IMG/VR virus record: IMGVR_UViG_3300045988_164290
Location: 1 to 48,543 of that record
Origin: a virus
Strand: one strand, 5' to 3'
DNA: 48,543 nucleotides
Each line of letters opens with the position of its first letter. Positions within the stretch are counted from its first letter, which is position 1. The translations under genes were made by a program, and so were the position numbers. Below, piece after piece: positions 1,926 to 44,983 of this stretch. The notes beneath the pieces are model-generated. The model worked only from the letters and a program-made list of their open reading frames with translations, searched no databases and was not told where the DNA came from.

Positions 1926-2270
1926 TTATTCCGTCTCCTTTTCGCCGTATTCGCAAAAATCACCGTCTCCACAGGCTTGACTCTTCGTAACGCAATAGCC
2001 GTCGTTGTAATAGCGGCAATCGCCGCAAAACACCGTCTCAGGCTCTTTCACAACTGTGTACCGCTTAACTTTGCATTTTTCGTCAAATCGGTTTTTCACC
2101 GTGATAAATTCGCTCTGAATTTTTATTCCGCTTTTTCGCAACTCGGATATTCGGCTCGCCAGTCTCATTACGCCCAATTCCGTCATTGCCTCGTATTGAG
2201 TTATCCAGCCGTTTGTCTGCATATACTTCAATACTCGTTCACTTTGTGTTGGTCTTTTGTTGTTTTCCAT
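1926..2270 (-). CDS. winged-helix/HTH DNA-binding protein with C-terminal Cys cluster
   Basis: ATG at 2270 after an AAGGAG RBS. ...VLKYMQTNGWITQYEAMTELGVMRLASRISELRKSG... looks like a phage HTH (HTH_39-like) domain. Confidence 0.55.
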   Translation of the reverse strand: MENNKRPTQSERVLKYMQTNGWITQYEAMTELGVMRLASRISELRKSGIKIQSEFITVKNRFDEKCKVKRYTVVKEPETVFCGDCRYYNDGYCVTKSQACGDGDFCEYGEKETE

Positions 2271-2862
2271 TGTTTCCACTCCTTATTTCATTTATTGTTG
2301 TCTGAATTTTTGTTTCAATTTCGGCTTGATTTTTACCTAATAATTGCCCAAATATTGCCATTAAACAAGTTGTTACTATGCTATCGCCAAAGCAATGATA
2401 TTGTGCCGAACGGCTTAAATTCTTGCCGATTTTGTATATGTCGTCGTCTTTAACGCCCATAAGCCTGCCACATTCTTTTTCGGTCAATTTGCGTACTCTG
2501 TATTCTCGCAAATTCGGCTCTACGATGCGGTTATTATGTTTTGGAGAACTGCCGTCGGTTGTCAGACAACCGATTGTTTCGTGCCTTATGCAAGAGTTCT
2601 GCTCGTCCAAAGCAAAAGGTTCTTTAAAAACTGTTTCTTCCATAATTTTAGGTTCTGTATTACCCCCCCCACACGTTGTCACCGTCGGCGCGCAACCGTC
2701 CGTGTCGTAAACCCTGCGCGTACAATCCATTGTTTTCTCGAATTTTCCACCGAGCCGACCTGCTATTTTACAATTCATTTTTTCTCCTATTACAACGTGC
2801 CAACACGCAATGTGTGCATCTATCGTCGGGCATATATCCAGCAGAGGTTCTACCCCCCCCAC
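2239..2862 (-). CDS. C-terminal segment of the split C5 DNA methyltransferase (TRD-like modules plus motifs IX-X)
   Basis: RRVYDTDGCAPTVTTCGGGNTEP, RKLTEKECGRLMGV and FGDSIVTTCLMAIF match the C-terminal half of C5-MTases. The frame is -1 relative to 2850..5048 and joins it at a G8 tract. Confidence 0.65.
   Translation of the reverse strand: MGGVEPLLDICPTIDAHIACWHVVIGEKMNCKIAGRLGGKFEKTMDCTRRVYDTDGCAPTVTTCGGGNTEPKIMEETVFKEPFALDEQNSCIRHETIGCLTTDGSSPKHNNRIVEPNLREYRVRKLTEKECGRLMGVKDDDIYKIGKNLSRSAQYHCFGDSIVTTCLMAIFGQLLGKNQAEIETKIQTTINEIRSGNNGKQQKTNTK
2663..2670 (-). repeat. homopolymer tract G8 (C8 on plus) inside the MTase 3' segment
   Basis: tacccccccca read directly; encodes CGGGN. Confidence 0.95.
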
Positions 2863-5048
2863 GGAAGTACCCGTGTCCTAATCGAACAATTACCTTTTCG
2901 TCCATAATTCAACTCCATTTTTGCCATTACAGTCAATCGTTCGGCACAATCCTTGCATCCCCCCCCCCTTTCAAAAGATGGTGATTTACCAAGCAACAAG
3001 CCATTTGCCTCATCAATGATAAAGTTGTCGCACGGACGAGTTCCGTTTTTCGTGAGGAGTGAGTTCGCTATACCGCTCCCATTAGTCGGCTCAAATTTAA
3101 AGCCGTTTCCACGCTCTGCATTTATTGTATTTCGATTAAAGTATGTTTCCAAAAGTTTCTCGCTTATATAATAATTTTGGGCAACATTGTTTTCAAGCAA
3201 ATCTTTTAGTTTTAAATTGCACCCAAGCGGTTTTGGGAACTCAAAATAATGATTGCCCAATACGCTTACCATAAAACACCTTTCACGATTTTGGGGTATT
3301 CCGAAGTTTGTAGCATTTATTACTTGCCATTTTGAGTGATAACCGATTTTATCTAAAAATGATACCCATTCAGCAAACGCTTTAATATTCTTATTCCCTA
3401 TTACTTGTTTAACGTTTTCCATTAAAAGAATTTGAGGTAATTCTGGGATTTCCTTCAAAAGCCTTTCAACTTCCCACAACAACCCACTTCTTGTTCCACT
3501 TCCCCTTTCCATTCCTTTACCAAGTCCCGCCGCAGATAAGTCCTGACAATTATGCACTATCGTGTTTTGCACTGTAAATGAGTGATTATTTTCAACTTCT
3601 ATATCGTATACATTCGATTGCCCACATTCGGTCACGCTTTTGATAGGAAACCAAATAAAACCATTTTCATAAAACGCTTTATCTTGCTTGCATACCTTTT
3701 CTTTCCAAATCAACTCGTATGTGTCGTGTTGATTTACAGTTCTACCCTCAATAACGCAAGTTTTCGCTCTCTTTGTATGATAAATTCTATACGGCATTCT
3801 ATATACTTTTGCAACACATTGACCAAGCCCATATATAAGTCCTCTGCTTATACTTGTTGCCTTATTATATCCCTTTATCACGCACCCGTCAGCACTCATA
3901 TAGCCGTTTAAAAACGAACGCAAAAGGTCTCTCGGCAAGTCCAATATAGTGTTTGTTAAATGCTTGTTTATCGCACCTTTCCCAAATTGTTCAACGAACT
4001 GCGAAAATTCTTTTTGCGGAATATGTATTTTATATATCGTCCGTTCTTTCACAATATTATATTTAAACAATTTATCGAGTTTTTTAACAAGGGTATCTAA
4101 CTTCTTAAAAGAACAGCAAATAACGATGCCGCCTTGTTTTCTTGTCCAGCCGTCTCCAATATATCGCCCTATTACATACCAAAAATCAGCATATTCCATA
4201 AGACCAGCCAATTCGTTTTTGTGACGTGCTTTTCTTCCGTCAGACCAATTATAAGTAATTCCATCCCACGAGGGAATTATTGCTTTTTGATTTATTGCGA
4301 CGCCCAAATAATCACTTTTTGTAAGTTGCACCGCCTCTTTCCAATATGGGTCTGAAAAAGTCCGACGAGAAAAATGTCCTACTCTACTCATAGTTCTTAC
4401 AAAAAACTTGTGATTTGTAGTGCATTTTATTTCGTCTATTGCCATAGCGTTAATTTTTAAAATGGGTTTAATACCATTGTTAAAAGTTTTCACGACTTTT
4501 TGATATGTATTATCGTGAGTAATAACCATCTCCCCAGCCTGAATTTTATCTATTGTTTTATAGCCACTATTCGTTAAGACAAGACTATCTGCCGTAAAAC
4601 AGGGGAATGAGTACGTCATAATATAGTTATATTTGTCGGTGTCTTTCACCTCTAAGTCTTCGCCTTTTATATTGCAAATTGAAACAAGGTTGTGCGAGGC
4701 TTGAATATTGTTGTAAATTGTCCGCAGTTTTTTCTCACCGTATCTATTCAACTGCTCTTTTGTGAGCGGCTGATTATAATCTGCACTGACGCCCATTTTA
4801 AAGAGAGTTTCAACAAGTTCGGGTTTGCCAAGTTCCTTTGAATAATCGTTATTATCTTCGGCAAAATGCAAATCTTTTAACGCCTGTATAGACGGTATCG
4901 CCCATTCGCAAGTTTTATAATGCTCAAACGGAACGCCCAAATATTTTAACGCTAATGCTTGACTGTCGTAACCGCTAAACAACGAAATAAGTCGTATAGG
5001 TTTTTCAATTTTAAACGGCTTTTCGCCGTCAAACATACTAATCTGCAT
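2850..5048 (-). CDS. DNA (cytosine-5) methyltransferase, N-terminal part, interrupted by an in-frame intein
   Basis: Motif I-like LISLFSGYDS. Motif IV is split as TYSFP|C...HN|CQDLSAAG. LLMENV is motif VI and GIPQNRERCFMVS is motif VIII. Confidence 0.85.
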   Translation of the reverse strand: MQISMFDGEKPFKIEKPIRLISLFSGYDSQALALKYLGVPFEHYKTCEWAIPSIQALKDLHFAEDNNDYSKELGKPELVETLFKMGVSADYNQPLTKEQLNRYGEKKLRTIYNNIQASHNLVSICNIKGEDLEVKDTDKYNYIMTYSFPCFTADSLVLTNSGYKTIDKIQAGEMVITHDNTYQKVVKTFNNGIKPILKINAMAIDEIKCTTNHKFFVRTMSRVGHFSRRTFSDPYWKEAVQLTKSDYLGVAINQKAIIPSWDGITYNWSDGRKARHKNELAGLMEYADFWYVIGRYIGDGWTRKQGGIVICCSFKKLDTLVKKLDKLFKYNIVKERTIYKIHIPQKEFSQFVEQFGKGAINKHLTNTILDLPRDLLRSFLNGYMSADGCVIKGYNKATSISRGLIYGLGQCVAKVYRMPYRIYHTKRAKTCVIEGRTVNQHDTYELIWKEKVCKQDKAFYENGFIWFPIKSVTECGQSNVYDIEVENNHSFTVQNTIVHNCQDLSAAGLGKGMERGSGTRSGLLWEVERLLKEIPELPQILLMENVKQVIGNKNIKAFAEWVSFLDKIGYHSKWQVINATNFGIPQNRERCFMVSVLGNHYFEFPKPLGCNLKLKDLLENNVAQNYYISEKLLETYFNRNTINAERGNGFKFEPTNGSGIANSLLTKNGTRPCDNFIIDEANGLLLGKSPSFERGGGCKDCAERLTVMAKMELNYGRKGNCSIRTRVLPWGG
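2853..2860 (-). repeat. homopolymer tract G8 at the junction of the two MTase ORFs
   Basis: CCG TGG GGG GGG TAG ends the 732-aa frame. One extra G, or a -1 slip, continues as ...GGVEPLLDICP. Confidence 0.95.
2959..2968 (-). repeat. homopolymer tract G10 inside the MTase
   Basis: gcatcccccccccctt read directly; encodes ERGGGC. Confidence 0.95.
3549..4601 (-). mobile_element. intein (351 aa) with LAGLIDADG homing-endonuclease domain, inserted in the PCQ catalytic motif
   Basis: CFTADSLVLT is block A and TTNHKFF is block B. WYVIGRYIGDGW and LNGYMSADGC are two LAGLIDADG motifs. NVYDIEVENNHSFTVQNTIVHN is followed by the +1 Cys. Removing the intein gives TYSFPCQDLS. Confidence 0.85.
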
Positions 5049-5184
5049 TTTCTTTTTCCAAATAGATTTTTACAAAATGGGCGAATACAAACATATCTTG
5101 ACGGTCGATTTCGCCCCTCAAAACCGTTTTGCAAATCTGTTCGGCTTTTGCAATTAAATATTCCTTTTCGCTCAAAACTTCCAT
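5038..5184 (-). CDS. small ORF (48 aa) overlapping the MTase start
   Basis: GGGAGaaaaaATG; MEVLSEKEYLIAKAEQICKTVLRGEIDRQDMFVFAHFVKIYLEKENAD; below the track length threshold. Confidence 0.35.
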   Translation of the reverse strand: MEVLSEKEYLIAKAEQICKTVLRGEIDRQDMFVFAHFVKIYLEKENAD

Positions 5185-5313
5185 TTTTTCTCCCATTTAT
5201 AACAAAAGCACACACCTCGGTCGGTACGAGCGACTTCGGCGTATGCGTTTTGACTTTTTAAATGACCACATATTTAAGTAAAAAGACCTCGTACTTCTTT
5301 CAACCTTAATTGC

Positions 5314-5342
5314 ATTATACTACTTTTGTTTGCCGTTGTCAA
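5314..5342 (-). promoter_or_regulatory. consensus promoter TTGACA-17-TATAAT
   Basis: The reverse complement reads TTGACAacggcaaacaaaagtagTATAAT, giving -35 at 5342..5337 and -10 at 5319..5314. Confidence 0.7.
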
Positions 5343-5869
5343 CCGTTTTTGCGATTATTCGCAAATTTTTTTATTTCGGTGGAAGATTTCAGAACGCAGA
5401 ACGGACGAACCCATAAAGCAAAAACATCATAGCAAGTCTTCACCTTATTTTTGAGGTCATCGACATAACAAACATAAACACTATATTCATATTCAGGACT
5501 TTCACCAGTCAAAGTCCAATACCGTTTGCCAATTTGTGGAATAATTTTGCAATATTTGCGATATTCGTTGATAGATATTAGCGATATTTTATCTACACAT
5601 TTACCATAATCATCACAACCGTCTTGGGTTCGCAAATCTCTTTCGAATTCAACAAGGTCGGATAAGTCTATTTCGGGAAATATGTCGTACATTTCTCGCC
5701 TTAAAGAGCATCCCTCCCAGTTATTTGTCATTTGCCCCCAAACACATATTTGATTAGTGTTATTTATTGCGAAAATTTTAATATTGCCGTTTTCGTCCTT
5801 ATCAAGAACAGTCCACAGCATATTTGCATACAATATGGTATCGCCAATTTTTGCCTCATTTGCTTGCAT
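5339..5869 (-). CDS. undiversified paralog of the DGR target proteins (DUF6273-like fold)
   Basis: GDTILYANMLWTVLDKDENG..., RYWTLTG... and the C-terminal WVRPFCVLKSS parallel the two VR-bearing genes. Only cagaacggacgaac matches the TR. Confidence 0.7.
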   Translation of the reverse strand: MQANEAKIGDTILYANMLWTVLDKDENGNIKIFAINNTNQICVWGQMTNNWEGCSLRREMYDIFPEIDLSDLVEFERDLRTQDGCDDYGKCVDKISLISINEYRKYCKIIPQIGKRYWTLTGESPEYEYSVYVCYVDDLKNKVKTCYDVFALWVRPFCVLKSSTEIKKFANNRKNG

Positions 5870-6344
5870 TTTTTTGTTTCTCCTTTAATCTGTTTTTTGC
5901 CTTAATATAATTTTCGTCAGGCACCGCACCCAACGATTTTAATTTTTCGTTCGGGTCGAGAAAGTCGCCGCAAATTATATTGTTTGCGAGTATTCCGCTT
6001 GCCAAAAGAATTGACAACTCGCTTGCTTGCGGAAACTGCGTTATAAACTGCTTTAAAAGCCGAGTTCGGCACTCGTGGCAGTTGTCCGCTTGAATATCCA
6101 CGCCAACAACGCTTGCGAGGGCTTTTAAGCCGTCTTTTTCGTTCTGACAAAACTTGTACTTACGGTCAAGTATTTCAACGAGGAAGTTCCCTGTTCCGCA
6201 GGACGGTTCGAAGAACGTCGTTTCAATATTTTCCCACATTTCGGCAGGAATAAGGTTGCACATATCCTTGACGATAAAGTCGGGCGTAAATACTTCGGCG
6301 AACTCCCGAACTCTCTTTTTACTTTTTATAAGTTTCTGCTTCAT
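5856..6344 (-). CDS. N6-adenine-MTase-like SAM-binding fragment (no NPPY-type motif IV seen)
   Basis: EVFTPDFIV, EPSCGTGNFL (motif I), VGVDIQ and ICGDFL are present. The ORF then ends at the start of the 5339..5869 gene. Confidence 0.6.
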   Translation of the reverse strand: MKQKLIKSKKRVREFAEVFTPDFIVKDMCNLIPAEMWENIETTFFEPSCGTGNFLVEILDRKYKFCQNEKDGLKALASVVGVDIQADNCHECRTRLLKQFITQFPQASELSILLASGILANNIICGDFLDPNEKLKSLGAVPDENYIKAKNRLKEKQKNASK

Positions 6345-13882: not shown

Positions 13883-14286
13883 TTCTTCGCTTTATACCTT
13901 TTTAAAAACTTTTCTGCCGTGTCGGCGGCGGTGCTTGCGTTGTGTCTGTACGCCGTCAGAATTTCGCCGCAGACCTTTTCAAAGTCGGTTGCCGTTAAGT
14001 CGGGGCGGCGGGATTTGACCGTATAGGCTATAATCAACTCGGGAAGTTTTACGCCGCAGTCGTAAGCGCGGAATAATTCCGCCGTAAATGGCATTTCGCC
14101 AAGTTCGCAGAATTTCCAACGCCCGCCCCATTTATCGGAAACAACTCCCGCCTGCTCGTCAATTGTCATTTCGTCGAAGCCGCTTTCTTGTTCGTCGCAG
14201 AATTTCGACATCGCAGAAGAAAGATTTTCGGCGTATTGATAATCAAATTCGCCCGTTTCGTCGTCTATTAGTTTAAAAATTTTCAT
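13879..14286 (-). CDS. hypothetical protein (135 aa)
   Basis: ATG at 14286 overlaps the target-gene stop (ATGA). The first 14 track codons are an out-of-frame reading of the VR flank. Confidence 0.55.
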   Translation of the reverse strand: MKIFKLIDDETGEFDYQYAENLSSAMSKFCDEQESGFDEMTIDEQAGVVSDKWGGRWKFCELGEMPFTAELFRAYDCGVKLPELIIAYTVKSRRPDLTATDFEKVCGEILTAYRHNASTAADTAEKFLKRYKAKK

Positions 14287-14924
14287 TTGTCGCCATCGGT
14301 CACATTTGCGGAAGATTTCAAGATGCAAAACGGACGAACGCCGCAGTCGAAGTTACAAAAATTGTAGTACAAAGTACCATTGTAGCCGACGTAACGGACA
14401 AGCTCGCTTTTATAATGGTTTTGACCTGAGTCTGGCGTGGCAGTCCACCACCACGAGCCAACGGGGAAGCGGTCAAGCGTTTTGACAAAACGGCGGTATT
14501 GTTCGCAAGTCAGAAGCCCTATTTTTTGCAGACAGTCGCCGAAATCGTTTAGCCCGTCATCGGCGGTTAGGTCGGTAGTGTGGGCGAGTATTTGCTCAAT
14601 ATCGAAACGTTGCAGAAATTCGCCATTTAACCACGAGCGAAGGCTCGATTTTGCGAAGTTCGGCGATTTATTGTCAAATACTTTTTCGATTATTTCGCCG
14701 TCTTCGTCTTTTAATAATTCTTTCGTGATGACTGCGACCCCGTCGGCGTTTTTGTCTAAAACGACCCAATCAAGCCCGCCGAAGTTCAGGACTTCGCCGA
14801 TCTCGAACTCGTCCGCCCTCTTTGCGTTTAAAAGTTTTATAATTTCGGCGTTGTCGATTTTTACGAAAATTTCGCCGTTTTTGCGTGTAATGTTTTTTTC
14901 GTTTATTGTCAATGTAATTTCCAT
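14283..14924 (-). CDS. DGR target protein 1 (DUF6273-like, C-terminal variable region)
   Basis: FEIGEVLNFGGLDWVVLDKNADG..., WWWTATPDSG...VRYVGYNGTLYYNFCNFDCGVRPFCILKSS; the 3' end matches the TR. Confidence 0.85.
   Translation of the reverse strand: MEITLTINEKNITRKNGEIFVKIDNAEIIKLLNAKRADEFEIGEVLNFGGLDWVVLDKNADGVAVITKELLKDEDGEIIEKVFDNKSPNFAKSSLRSWLNGEFLQRFDIEQILAHTTDLTADDGLNDFGDCLQKIGLLTCEQYRRFVKTLDRFPVGSWWWTATPDSGQNHYKSELVRYVGYNGTLYYNFCNFDCGVRPFCILKSSANVTDGDK
14329..14410 (-). repeat. DGR variable repeat VR-1
   Basis: Ungapped 82-nt match to TR 43836..43917. I count 12 mismatches, and all sit where the TR coding strand has A. Confidence 0.9.
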
Positions 14925-42796: not shown

Positions 42797-43753
42797 TTAT
42801 AATTTCATTTTTTCAAACGCTTTCCACGAAGAATAACTTTTTTGATAAATTTCAGTTTCGCCGAGTTTTGTTTTTAACCTATTATATTTTTTATTTGCTC
42901 GTCTGCGATTTTCTCCGCATAATACTCTGATAGGTTCACTGTTGTTCGGGTATGTATGAAAACCTAAAAATTTTATTCCGTCGCTAAAATGCATTATTTG
43001 AGTTTTGCCGTTAAGGCTTAATTTTAAATTTAACAGTAATTTTGCGATTTCCGTTAAGCAGTATTTTAGATAATTTTTATCTGCGTGAATTAAATAAAAG
43101 TCGTCCATATATCGCCCATAATATTTGATTTTTAATTTATTGACGATAAAATGGTCTAACTCGTTTAATAGCAAGTTTGCAAATAGTTGGCTCGTTTGAT
43201 TTCCAAGTGCAAGTCCATCACCGTCAACACTATCAATAAACATATCGCATAGTGATAATACCTTGTTATCTGAAAAATAAACCCGCAACTTATCTTTTAA
43301 AACGCAATGGTCTATTGTATAGAAAAATTTTGTTATATCGCACTTTAAAAAGTATCCATTACTGCCGTATTCTTCAAAAAAGTCTTTTTCATCTTGCAAT
43401 AATCTATTTAGCCCATATAATGTGCCTTTGCCTTTTCGACCCGCAAAACACCTATCAATAAAATGTTTTTCCATTTTAGGAATAAGCACATTTTCGCATA
43501 GGCTCATTTGCACGATTTTGTCTTTCGGGTGAGCAGATTTTATTAAACGTTTTTTCGGCTCAAAAATTTCAAACTCATTATAAGGGCTAATTGTGTAACT
43601 GCCGTTAATAAGTTGTTTTTGCAAAATATAAAGGCTTTCAAGTGTCATACTTTCTATTTTGCATAATCGAAAACTTTTCCGTTTCCCTCGCTTAGATTTT
43701 TTCCACGCTCGATATAAATTACCAAAGTTTACTATTTGCTCAAATTCAGTCAT
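42797..43753 (-). CDS. DGR reverse transcriptase
   Basis: ATG at 43753 (MTEFEQIVNFGNLYRAWKKSKRGK). Motifs: KKRLIKSAHPKDKIVQ, CDITKFFYTIDH, LALGNQTSQLFAN (the DGR-type SQ motif), YGRYMDDFYLI and GIKFLGF. Confidence 0.9.
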   Translation of the reverse strand: MTEFEQIVNFGNLYRAWKKSKRGKRKSFRLCKIESMTLESLYILQKQLINGSYTISPYNEFEIFEPKKRLIKSAHPKDKIVQMSLCENVLIPKMEKHFIDRCFAGRKGKGTLYGLNRLLQDEKDFFEEYGSNGYFLKCDITKFFYTIDHCVLKDKLRVYFSDNKVLSLCDMFIDSVDGDGLALGNQTSQLFANLLLNELDHFIVNKLKIKYYGRYMDDFYLIHADKNYLKYCLTEIAKLLLNLKLSLNGKTQIMHFSDGIKFLGFHTYPNNSEPIRVLCGENRRRANKKYNRLKTKLGETEIYQKSYSSWKAFEKMKL

Positions 43754-43766
43754 AAAGTCAAAAGAA

Positions 43767-43931
43767 AGGTTGCATACTCTTTTGCATAATGCGGACTGAT
43801 TTCGGCTTTTGCCTACTCTTTCTCCCTGTTTCCAGAACGGACGAACGCCGCTGTTGTTGTTACAATAATTGTTGTTCAATGTACCATTGTAGTTGACGTA
43901 ACGGACAAGTTCGTTTTACAGTATGCAACCT
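43767..43931 (-). repeat. 12-bp perfect inverted repeat bracketing the TR and spacer
   Basis: Plus 43767..43778 (aggttgcatact) is the reverse complement of plus 43920..43931 (agtatgcaacct). Confidence 0.85.
43836..43917 (-). repeat. DGR template repeat (TR)
   Basis: Lies between avd and the RT gene. Read in the VR frame it encodes NELVRYVNYNGTLNNNYCNNNSGVRPF, with 9 Asn codons. Confidence 0.9.
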
Positions 43932-43937
43932 GAATTT

Positions 43938-44288
43938 TTATTTATCTTTTGACCGCCAAGCAAGCGTTAAATGCTTAACGTCAGCAATAGACTTCGCCCA
44001 AAATTCGCTGTCGTCTGCTGACATAATTTTACACTCAACGCATAACTCCACATAAAAACTTAACTCGTCGCACAATATTATTGCACGGCTTTGTCTTTTG
44101 TTTCTCTCCGCAATATCCCTCATTTGATTAGCCTCAAACAAGTATTCATAAATCTGCAACGCTTTTGTTTGCATTTTGTCGCAGAGCGTAAATCTATACT
44201 TTTTCGGGAATTTTTTGCAATTTGAGGTTTTTGTGATTGTATAAACTGCTAATTGTTTCGCTTTTACTATTACTGTTAATTCCTGCAT
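43938..44288 (-). CDS. avd: DGR accessory variability determinant
   Basis: ATG at 44288 overlaps the target stop (TAATG). 116 aa, helical; ...NCKKFPKKYRFTLCDKMQTKALQIYEYLFEAN... is typical of Avd. Confidence 0.8.
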   Translation of the reverse strand: MQELTVIVKAKQLAVYTITKTSNCKKFPKKYRFTLCDKMQTKALQIYEYLFEANQMRDIAERNKRQSRAIILCDELSFYVELCVECKIMSADDSEFWAKSIADVKHLTLAWRSKDK

Positions 44289-44926
44289 TATCGCACGACC
44301 TCGCAACAAGATTTCAAGATGCAAAACGGACGAACGCCGCTGATGATGTTACAATAATAGTAGTTCAATGCACCACCGTAGCTGACGCAACGGACAAGCG
44401 TTTCATATCCTCTTGTAGGCGTGGAATATGCAGTAGCAAGCCACCACCATTTTTTAGGGTTGTATTTAAGCATAATGTTCGTGTATTTGCAATATAATTC
44501 GCAAGTTAAAAGACTTACGTTGGCTTTGCATTTTTTATAATCTCTTAAACCGTCGTCTGCGGTTAAATCAACAGTATGCTCGCAAATGTTATTTGCGCCA
44601 ATTAAAGCCGCTAATCTGACGTAATATTCGTCGTTAAGGAATGAATAAATTTCAGACATTGCAAAATTATTCGTATCGCTATCAAACTTGCGGCTATCGG
44701 GAAGTAAATCTTTTTTCAAAACCGCCGTCGTATCGCCGCTTTGTTCAAGAACTATCCACTCTTCGCCGCCGATTTTAAAAGTTTCGCCGACGGGAACGCT
44801 TGCAAGTTTCACCTTCTTGTCAAAAAGGTCTTTCACTCTGTCAACGGGAATTTCAAAAATGATTTTATCGCCATCACGTTTTACCGCTTCGTTATCAGTT
44901 ACCTCAATCGTTATTTTTTTTGCCAT
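44288..44926 (-). CDS. DGR target protein 2 (DUF6273-like, C-terminal variable region)
   Basis: ATG at 44926 after GAGAGGTG. FKIGGEEWIVLEQSGD..., WWWLATAYS...VRCVSYGGALNYYYCNIISGVRPFCILKS. Confidence 0.85.
   Translation of the reverse strand: MAKKITIEVTDNEAVKRDGDKIIFEIPVDRVKDLFDKKVKLASVPVGETFKIGGEEWIVLEQSGDTTAVLKKDLLPDSRKFDSDTNNFAMSEIYSFLNDEYYVRLAALIGANNICEHTVDLTADDGLRDYKKCKANVSLLTCELYCKYTNIMLKYNPKKWWWLATAYSTPTRGYETLVRCVSYGGALNYYYCNIISGVRPFCILKSCCEVVR
44325..44400 (-). repeat. DGR variable repeat VR-2
   Basis: Ungapped match to TR 43836..43911. I count 11 mismatches, all at TR adenines. Confidence 0.9.
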
Positions 44927-44954
44927 TTTTCGCACCTCTCTTTTATTTGTTTTT

Positions 44955-44983
44955 ATTATATATTTTTTATTGACTTTTGTCAA
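44955..44983 (-). promoter_or_regulatory. consensus promoter TTGACA-17-TATAAT in front of the DGR operon
   Basis: The reverse complement reads TTGACAaaagtcaataaaaaataTATAAT. Confidence 0.7.

Follow-up and report, generated by a model that had tools for sequence, protein, structure and literature searches.

A candidate class 1 LAGLIDADG intein at the catalytic cysteine of a split phage C5 DNA methyltransferase

What is the 351-residue segment that sits directly before the catalytic cysteine of a phage DNA methyltransferase (MTase), and what would such an enzyme need in order to work? The locus that raises this question lies in IMG/VR virus record IMGVR_UViG_3300045988_164290, a 48,543-nt stretch of viral DNA that we analysed in full and refer to as the window; the MTase locus is read on its minus strand. 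An initial annotation had proposed that positions 3549-4601 encode a LAGLIDADG intein in the PCQ motif of a phage C5-MTase, and domain models, the predicted fold, invariant residues and intein-free homologs agree with that proposal. We consider it about 90% probable that the segment is a canonical class 1 intein with a double-motif LAGLIDADG endonuclease, inserted between Pro149 and the cysteine of motif IV in the alpha open reading frame (ORF) of a phage C5-MTase with multiple target recognition domain (TRD) modules. Splicing, endonuclease activity and the dependence of methylation on splicing are predictions, and in each of them we place less confidence than in the identity of the element.

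The intein and its insertion site

The precursor ORF (2850-5048, minus strand) encodes 732 amino acids and reads KYNYIMTYSFP/CFTADSLVLT at its upstream junction and TIVHN/CQDLSAAG at its downstream junction, where slashes mark the predicted splice points and 351 residues lie between them. The N-extein (4602-5048) comprises residues 1-149 of the alpha ORF, from the motif I region LFSGYDSQ to TYSFP, and can be aligned over its full length with intein-free relatives. The intein (3549-4601) begins with Cys1 (codon 4601-4599) and ends with His350-Asn351 (Asn351 codon 3551-3549), limits that the initial annotation had placed to the exact base, and Cys+1 follows at 3548-3546. Each of the strings quoted in that annotation, namely TYSFP/CFTADSLVLT, TTNH, YVIGRYIGDGW, LNGYMSADGC and the C-terminal junction (VYDIEVENNHSFTVQNTIVHN/CQDLSAAG), is present in the ORF, as is the C-terminal motif string VYDIEVENNHSF that runs on to IVHN.

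The segment has a Cys at position 1, a block B TxxH motif, a His-Asn pair followed by a +1 Cys and a HINT fold, all features of class 1 inteins. It is an exact in-frame insertion, and its excision gives back a contiguous and conserved host sequence. Block B reads TTNH (aa 61-64, 4410-4421) and supplies Thr61 and His64. A homing-endonuclease domain spans roughly aa 130-300 (3702-4214), with approximate boundaries taken from the secondary structure of the model described below. Its two LAGLIDADG motifs are motif 1 (WYVIGRYIGDGW, 4146-4181, containing YVIGRYIGDGW), with catalytic Asp150, and motif 2 (LNGYMSADGC, 3882-3911), with catalytic Asp238. In IGRYIGD150G and GYMSAD238G alike the helix ends in the catalytic Asp, and the model helices 138-150 and 224-238 terminate in the two Asp-Gly pairs. 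A scan with intein, HINT and LAGLIDADG profiles, suggested along with the original assignment, gave Pfam matches that all exceed their gathering scores (Intein_splicing, 49.5 bits with a cutoff of 35.8; Hint_2, 30.3 with 28.4; LAGLIDADG_3, 24.4 with 22.5), and NCBIfam intein_Cterm was likewise above its cutoff (23.8 vs 15.6).

We built an AlphaFold2 model of the intein on a 61-sequence alignment of its family and obtained a predicted local distance difference test score (pLDDT) of 95.5 and a predicted template modeling score (pTM) of 0.92. The best Foldseek matches of this model in the PDB were TliVMA (7qsu, E 8e-19, template modeling (TM) score 0.70), PI-SceI, PhoVMA, PI-PfuI and PI-TkoII, and the central part of the intein resembles the free LAGLIDADG enzymes I-DmoI and I-Tsp061I. 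When the PDB was searched by sequence, the intein retrieved the termini of mini-inteins (Spl DnaX, DnaB, gp41-1) together with VMA inteins. The solved inteins TliVMA (7qsu/7qss), PI-SceI (1vde/1lws), PI-PfuI (1dq3) and PI-TkoII (2cw7) have the same bipartite HINT domain split by a double-LAGLIDADG endonuclease and share Cys1, TxxH, His-Asn and the +1 Cys (Foldseek E 1e-19 to 1e-11, TM at most 0.70). However, their sequence identity to the window intein is just 12-21% and their hosts are different proteins (VMA ATPase, ribonucleotide reductase and DNA polymerase). At 351 aa the window intein is also shorter than PI-SceI and PI-PfuI, whose chains have 405-537 aa.

We then compared 92 homologous inteins, 42-79% identical, from which both junctions could be extracted. 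Residues C1, T61, H64, G151, D238, G239, H350 and N351 are invariant in this set, D150 is 99% conserved, Lys265 is also among the residues that are invariant or at least 98% conserved, and the +1 residue is Cys in 92/92. Relative to its two closest inteins, those of loci L014 and L016, the ratio of nonsynonymous to synonymous differences (pN/pS) is about 0.2 in both splicing (HINT) lobes and in the endonuclease domain, with a range of 0.19-0.30 for the latter. Because the catalytic residues are conserved across the family and pN/pS is near 0.2, the active sites for splicing and for DNA cleavage are both kept by purifying selection. These data bear on the alternative that the segment is a non-splicing, HINT-like or domesticated insertion domain, such as a bacterial intein-like (BIL) domain. 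Splicing is a prediction here, and nothing specific speaks for that alternative. Every residue of the four-step class 1 pathway is invariant in the family, and two of these, the terminal Asn and the +1 Cys, are usually missing from BIL domains. Set against intein-free homologs, the insertion can be removed exactly, and the fold fits true inteins best. We regard a non-splicing domain as extremely improbable.

The insertion point separates Pro149 from the catalytic Cys of the PCQ motif (motif IV). Intein-free relatives (P0001-P0005, P0008, P0017 and others) have an uninterrupted TYSFPCQDLS[A/S]AG, and the pattern TYS[FY]PCQDLS runs without a gap in P0001-P0005 and in an intein-free sister locus (L001). 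Excision from the window sequence yields TYSFPCQDLS as in these relatives, which bears out the expectation that motif IV, FPCQDLS, would be restored. When the spliced sequence was aligned to solved MTases, another check put forward at the outset, the best match was 8c56/4dkj (E 3e-31), with TYSFPCQDLS identical in the alignment, and M.HhaI was matched over residues 73-205, PCQ motif included. Cys+1 (3546-3548), the first C-extein residue, aligns with the PCQ cysteine of the intein-free relatives and of the solved enzymes 8c56/4dkj and M.HhaI. The catalytic step of C5-MTases is the attack of this cysteine on C6 of cytosine. The alignment supports the earlier suggestion that the catalytic Cys of the enzyme would double as the +1 splicing nucleophile, and it is reasonable to infer that MTase activity depends on splicing.

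We envisage that the 732-aa precursor is translated and that Cys1 undergoes an N-S acyl shift, helped by Thr61 and His64 of block B. The thioester would be handed to the cysteine that also serves the enzyme in catalysis, Cys+1, after which Asn351 would cyclise with the assistance of His350 and an S-N shift would produce a seamless TYSFP-CQDLS catalytic loop. Before splicing, the enzyme should be inactive, since the loop is broken by 351 residues. In the mobility branch of this proposal, the freed intein or the precursor would cut intein-free alleles at the PCQ-coding sequence, and the intein would be copied in by double-strand-break repair with co-conversion of flanking extein DNA. This repair could draw on the recombination pair, RecT and an exonuclease, that the window phage encodes.

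Distribution and mobility of the intein

The window intein is not unique and is one member of a large family at the P/C site. A search with the intein alone retrieved 180 database proteins (clusters), and PF00145 was also found on most of the 120 matches listed of the 180. Wherever the junction was readable it followed the pattern [F/S/T]P/C...HN/C[Q/T][D/S], and the P/C site is identical in all 92 family members with both junctions extracted. A scan restricted to one genome per species found 40 loci, most with the same junction, and the carriers, which cover many bacterial phyla as well as archaea, include Ruminococcus, Christensenellaceae, Eubacterium, Mollicutes, Treponema, Tannerellaceae, Bacteroidaceae, a Siminovitchia isolate, Actinomycetota, Gracilibacteria, Peribacteria and a metagenome-assembled genome (MAG) of Woesearchaeota (DPANN archaea). 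The named relatives of the window intein come mainly from Bacillota in gut and rumen samples, and the window phage itself is low-GC. In the viral contigs L008 and L009 the exteins are ~80% identical to those of the window, and the intein at the same PC site is just 37% identical to the window intein. As a place where inteins insert, P/C of the C5-MTase is old, diverse and very widespread.

Several members of the wider family deserve separate mention. The intein of L008/L009 (3065-4057) ends in ISKN/C and has no penultimate His. Loci L053 and L059, from Gracilibacteria and Peribacteria MAGs, hold homologous MTase inteins with 21-24 in-frame stops under translation table 11. Gracilibacteria and Peribacteria use an alternative genetic code in which TGA is read as Gly, and our guess is that these stops are due to recoding; if this is true, the intein family has entered recoded genomes. 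The related inteins of L047, L048 and L049 (31-34% identity) are found in a different host protein, with the junction [SQ]HA/C...HN/CG[VLM][LV].

Inteins have been reported in other phage methylases. The mycobacteriophage DNMT-1/2 inteins lie in N6/N4 (PF01555) methylases (PMC5050341), and an actinophage methylase intein is likewise in an N6/N4 enzyme (PMC9957025). The host class seen here is already listed as intein-bearing: the accessible portion of an actinophage survey gives C-5 methylase as an intein host, without an insertion site (bioRxiv 10.1101/2025.01.02.630785). The inteins in these three sources resemble that of the window in being mobile elements of DNA-modification enzymes, with a patchy distribution and horizontal transfer between divergent methylases. 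In contrast, those that have been characterised reside in N6/N4 (PF01555) enzymes of actinophages, whereas the window intein resides in a C5 enzyme of a low-GC phage. We found no description of an intein at the PCQ motif in the searchable full-text literature, and methylases are unmentioned in the main text of a bacterial and archaeal intein survey (PMC4760082).

The initial annotation had also suggested a search for intein-less alleles in relatives, and these were found both as the intein-free proteins described above and as L001. L001 is an independently assembled Logan contig (SRR25448283) that shares synteny and 93-97% identity with the window along ~8.8 kb and has the same MTase gene without the intein, with ACATACTCTTATCCTTGCCAGGACTTATCA at the empty site. 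Identity between the two is 99.1% over 4662-5099, drops to 68% in the 60 nt directly 5′ of the site and to 79-85% in the first 200 nt on its 3′ side, and is back to 97% over 3249-3348. Synonymous divergence follows the same course, with 0.026 in the distal N-extein, 0.79 in the 60-nt 5′ patch, 0.56 in the ~210-nt 3′ patch and 0.084 beyond. A diverged patch that brackets the site fits a recombination or co-conversion scar, and the same patch would arise equally well if recombination with an empty, diverged allele had removed the intein precisely. Whichever its direction, turnover of the intein in this phage lineage is very recent. We considered L014 (79% aa identity), L016 (71%) and other alleles as donors, and none of them fits the diverged patch around the site better than L001.

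The same comparison bears on whether the intein might be a co-opted regulator. Under that explanation, conditional splicing would act as a post-translational switch that delays or gates the MTase, for example by redox through Cys1, Cys+1 or other intein cysteines. The identity of the +1 nucleophile with the catalytic Cys would suit such a switch, as would the retention of one site over very wide taxonomic distances. However, homing inteins generally insert in conserved active-site motifs (PMC4760082), nothing in the sequence demands regulation, and patchy presence between 99%-identical phages suits a parasite better than a required regulator. We consider regulated splicing quite unlikely.

A split host gene with poly-G tracts

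The initial annotation was right about the identity of the host, which Pfam DNA_methylase matches at 117 bits, and missed that its reading frame does not continue to motifs IX and X. Profile positions 71-229 match the 732-aa ORF (1.5e-33), and positions 234-322, which hold motifs IX and X, match elsewhere (8.7e-08), in a second ORF in a different frame (2239-2862). PCQ, ENV (VI), QNRER (VIII), RKLT..E..RLMG and GDSI are visible in the alignment, and in the window the C5 motifs do not all lie on one polypeptide. As read, the C-extein (2850-3548) carries motifs IV-VIII (within profile 71-229), TRD modules A and B and, after a G10 tract, an out-of-frame tail that ends at the stop at 2852-2850. 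This tail (CKDCAERLTV...LPWGG) is without homolog support, and the other frame, MQGLCRTIDCNGKNGVELWTKR followed by a stop, matches P0001, P0008 and P0017.

The reading that homologs support shifts frame three times, at the G10 tract, at an overlapping stop and start, and at a G8 tract (2853-2860). At the overlap, the homolog-supported alpha stop is TAA at 2892-2890, and an ATG at 2905-2903 is preceded by GGAG 7 nt upstream. The 45-aa ORF that begins there (MDEKVIVRLGHGYFRGGG..., 2768-2905) is also called in L001, and P0017 and P0022 contain its homolog, the KLPHGYFEGS...APTID...WH..IGEE module; the ORF would be the start of a long beta ORF if the G8 tract were G7 or G10. A short beta ORF of 179 aa, ORF-C (2239-2778, called in L001 too), contains TRD module D and motifs IX and X (RKLTEKECGRLMGV, GDSIV; profile 234-322), with AGGAG 5 nt before its ATG. 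The window thus has pairs of a Shine-Dalgarno (SD) sequence and an ATG at 2916-2903 and 2788-2776.

Relatives show that this layout is native to the family. L002, L004, L006 and L008 (77-80% identity) have a 363-aa alpha ORF, which becomes 694 aa with the intein in L008, and one cluster of 363-aa alpha proteins has 153 member sequences. The beta ORFs of these relatives overlap alpha (L002, 4001-5092 and 5082-5780; L008, 2618-4702 and 4692 onward), and each opens at the equivalent boundary between TRD modules with an SD and a start codon of its own. Because the relatives share this overlapping alpha/beta layout, the MTase family is naturally two-ORF and apparently a two-subunit C5-MTase. NCBIfam NF045953 ('DNA (cytosine-5-)-methyltransferase N-terminal subunit') gives a weak match at aa 16-115. 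M.AquI is a two-polypeptide C5 methyltransferase with alpha and beta subunits split in the variable region, and the window gene is similar in having motifs I-VIII in one ORF and IX-X in a second that starts in the TRD region. Unlike the M.AquI type, the window has overlapping ORFs, several TRD modules, an intein in alpha and poly-G tracts that interrupt modules. Several TRD modules are also a feature of the multispecific Bacillus-phage MTases. What the intein occupies is best seen as the catalytic alpha portion of a split phage C5-MTase with multiple TRD modules, an architecture more unusual than the intein itself. Splicing alone would not give one full-length enzyme from the window sequence, because the host gene is also split and frame-shifted downstream.

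We weighed other causes for the break in the frame. A group I or II intron was rejected, as Rfam returned nothing at the gathering threshold over the whole window and an E-value search of 2200-5300 returned noise only; the break falls at the poly-G tracts and the overlapping ORF start. Generic sequencing or assembly indels are disfavoured, given that all other large genes are intact, that L001 agrees on the frame at the G8 tract and on the alpha stop, and that variants in tract length occur in Illumina/SPAdes contigs with coverage up to 540x. We also considered programmed -1 frameshifting at the alpha/beta overlap. Since an SD and ATG are present and no slippery heptamer was seen by eye, separate initiation of beta is favoured over frameshifting.

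Three poly-G tracts on the coding strand lie in the TRD modules. Tract 1 is a G10 in module B (2959-2968) and is out of frame, such that G8 or G11 would restore the homolog-supported frame; L001 has GATAAAGGCGGG at this position, which is 2 nt shorter and in frame. Tract 2, the G8 in module C (2853-2860), is out of frame in both the window and L001. Tract 3 is a G8 that is in frame (2663-2670, coding TTC-GGG-NTEPK) and polymorphic in length among relatives. These are the only G/C runs of at least 8 in the 48.5 kb, where ~0.18 would be expected, and the probability of three within 310 nt is ~4e-8. GGG is the rarest Gly codon (15%), and GGG-GGG encodes 0 of 26 Gly-Gly pairs in 13 other genes.

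Equivalent tracts are found in the TRD modules of relatives (L002, L004, L005, L006, L008, L012, L014, L024-L030), with almost none in flanking genes. G10 tracts outside the MTase gene were observed in L001 (2675) and L007 (6678). At the tract 3 site, 15 independent contigs have G7 (six), G8 (six, in frame) or G9 (three); SPAdes contigs with 60-540x coverage show each of the three lengths behind an identical 24-nt flank, and among relatives the reading frame changes at the tract. Because lengths vary behind identical flanks and frames switch at the tract, we read these runs as the signature of hypermutable contingency tracts, in what looks like phase variation of the MTase. From the sequence as it stands, the expected products are a short beta and an alpha precursor whose C-terminal tail is aberrant.

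A broken frame also raises the main alternative, that a genuine intein resides in a decaying MTase pseudogene, as selfish DNA with no active enzyme made; a link of splicing to methylation would then mean nothing biologically for this phage. In the window as many as three changes of frame are required to follow the homologs, two of the tracts (1 and 2) are out of frame, and the closest intein-bearing relative, discussed below, indicates that host decay does occur. However, ORF-C has a pN/pS of 0.14 relative to L001, which suggests that the C-terminal part of the MTase is still under purifying selection, and the exteins have values of 0.12-0.27. The alpha/beta layout with its SD and start is kept in relatives at 77-80% identity and in the 153-member alpha cluster, and the window has an intact tract 3 and an intact beta ORF. 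We consider decay of the host unlikely.

Several observations count against the overall interpretation given here. Among the intein models, NCBIfam intein_Nterm alone scored slightly under its cutoff (20.1 vs 24.5), and splicing and cleavage are themselves predictions. For want of a close donor of the divergent patch among the sampled alleles, the event at the insertion site has no assignable direction, and L001 could equally have lost its intein by recombination with an empty allele. Downstream of the intein, poly-G tracts throw the host gene of the window out of frame. Among intein-bearing relatives the closest is L014 (79% intein identity), and its C-extein is interrupted by a nonsense codon, in frame and 13 codons past the intein (CQDLSSAGKG, stop, GMSRDSGTRS; ~5914, also in L015), with more frame breaks at two G8 tracts. 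L014 is either a pseudogenised host or yet another split, and some intein copies may sit in non-functional hosts.

If the tracts are indeed contingency loci, the host gene could be a phage 'phasevarion'. In this speculative proposal, which we rate as possible and short of probable, a split multispecific C5-MTase has its own poly-G tract in each TRD module, with SD and ATG restarts that would keep downstream modules and motifs IX and X in use when upstream modules are off, such that a phage population would stochastically show varied specificities or none. Known phasevarions are switched by simple-sequence repeats, and most are type III mod or type I hsd genes on the chromosomes of host-adapted pathogens. 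The window MTase is similar to them in having long G tracts inside the MTase coding region whose lengths differ by ±1 between close relatives. Unlike them, it is an orphan C5-MTase carried by a phage, and several of its TRD modules each have a tract of their own. The searchable full-text literature yielded no paper on a poly-G phase-variable phage C5-MTase, only unrelated papers on phase variation.

Phage context and implications

The window is a tailed-phage genome that encodes a large terminase, portal, major head and tail proteins, a replisome organiser and a DnaC-like loader. No tRNAs were found in it. Among deposited phage genomes it has no close relatives, and the sole DNA match is 72 bp to MTase genes of C. 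difficile phages. Just upstream of the MTase gene, a small ORF at 5856-6344 (minus strand) has weak similarity to phrog_21201 (DNA methyltransferase, E 1.4e-11).

The phage also carries a diversity-generating retroelement (DGR), with a reverse transcriptase at 42797-43879 (minus strand; phrog_1423, E 6.5e-97) and an adjoining 77-nt template repeat (43833-43909). One variable repeat (44322-44398) is at the 3′ end of ORF 44288-44983, and another (14326-14402) is ~30 kb off, at the 3′ end of ORF 14283-14924. Mismatches are nearly all at template adenines (9/10), and non-A positions are conserved at 54/55 in each variable repeat. The ORF adjoining the MTase (5339-5869, minus strand) is a third paralog of the DGR targets (phrog_9958, ending in WVRPFCVLKS), in which no match to the template repeat was found.

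With this locus, the PCQ catalytic loop of C5-MTases joins the active-site motifs targeted by inteins, a site on which we found little literature. The window and L001 form a natural intein-plus and intein-minus pair with a scar, which is handy for studies of homing and co-conversion in phages. Since the predicted +1 nucleophile and the catalytic cysteine of the enzyme are one residue, DNA methylation could be put under a clean switch that depends on splicing. The architecture of the host gene, which recurs in related gut and rumen phages, may be a more consequential lead than the intein. If the phasevarion proposal is true, phages phase-vary their own anti-restriction methylation. Such variation would be a form of bet-hedging, as some hosts have classical restriction systems and others restrict methylated DNA, and the intein would add an extra post-translational requirement on the catalytic subunit.

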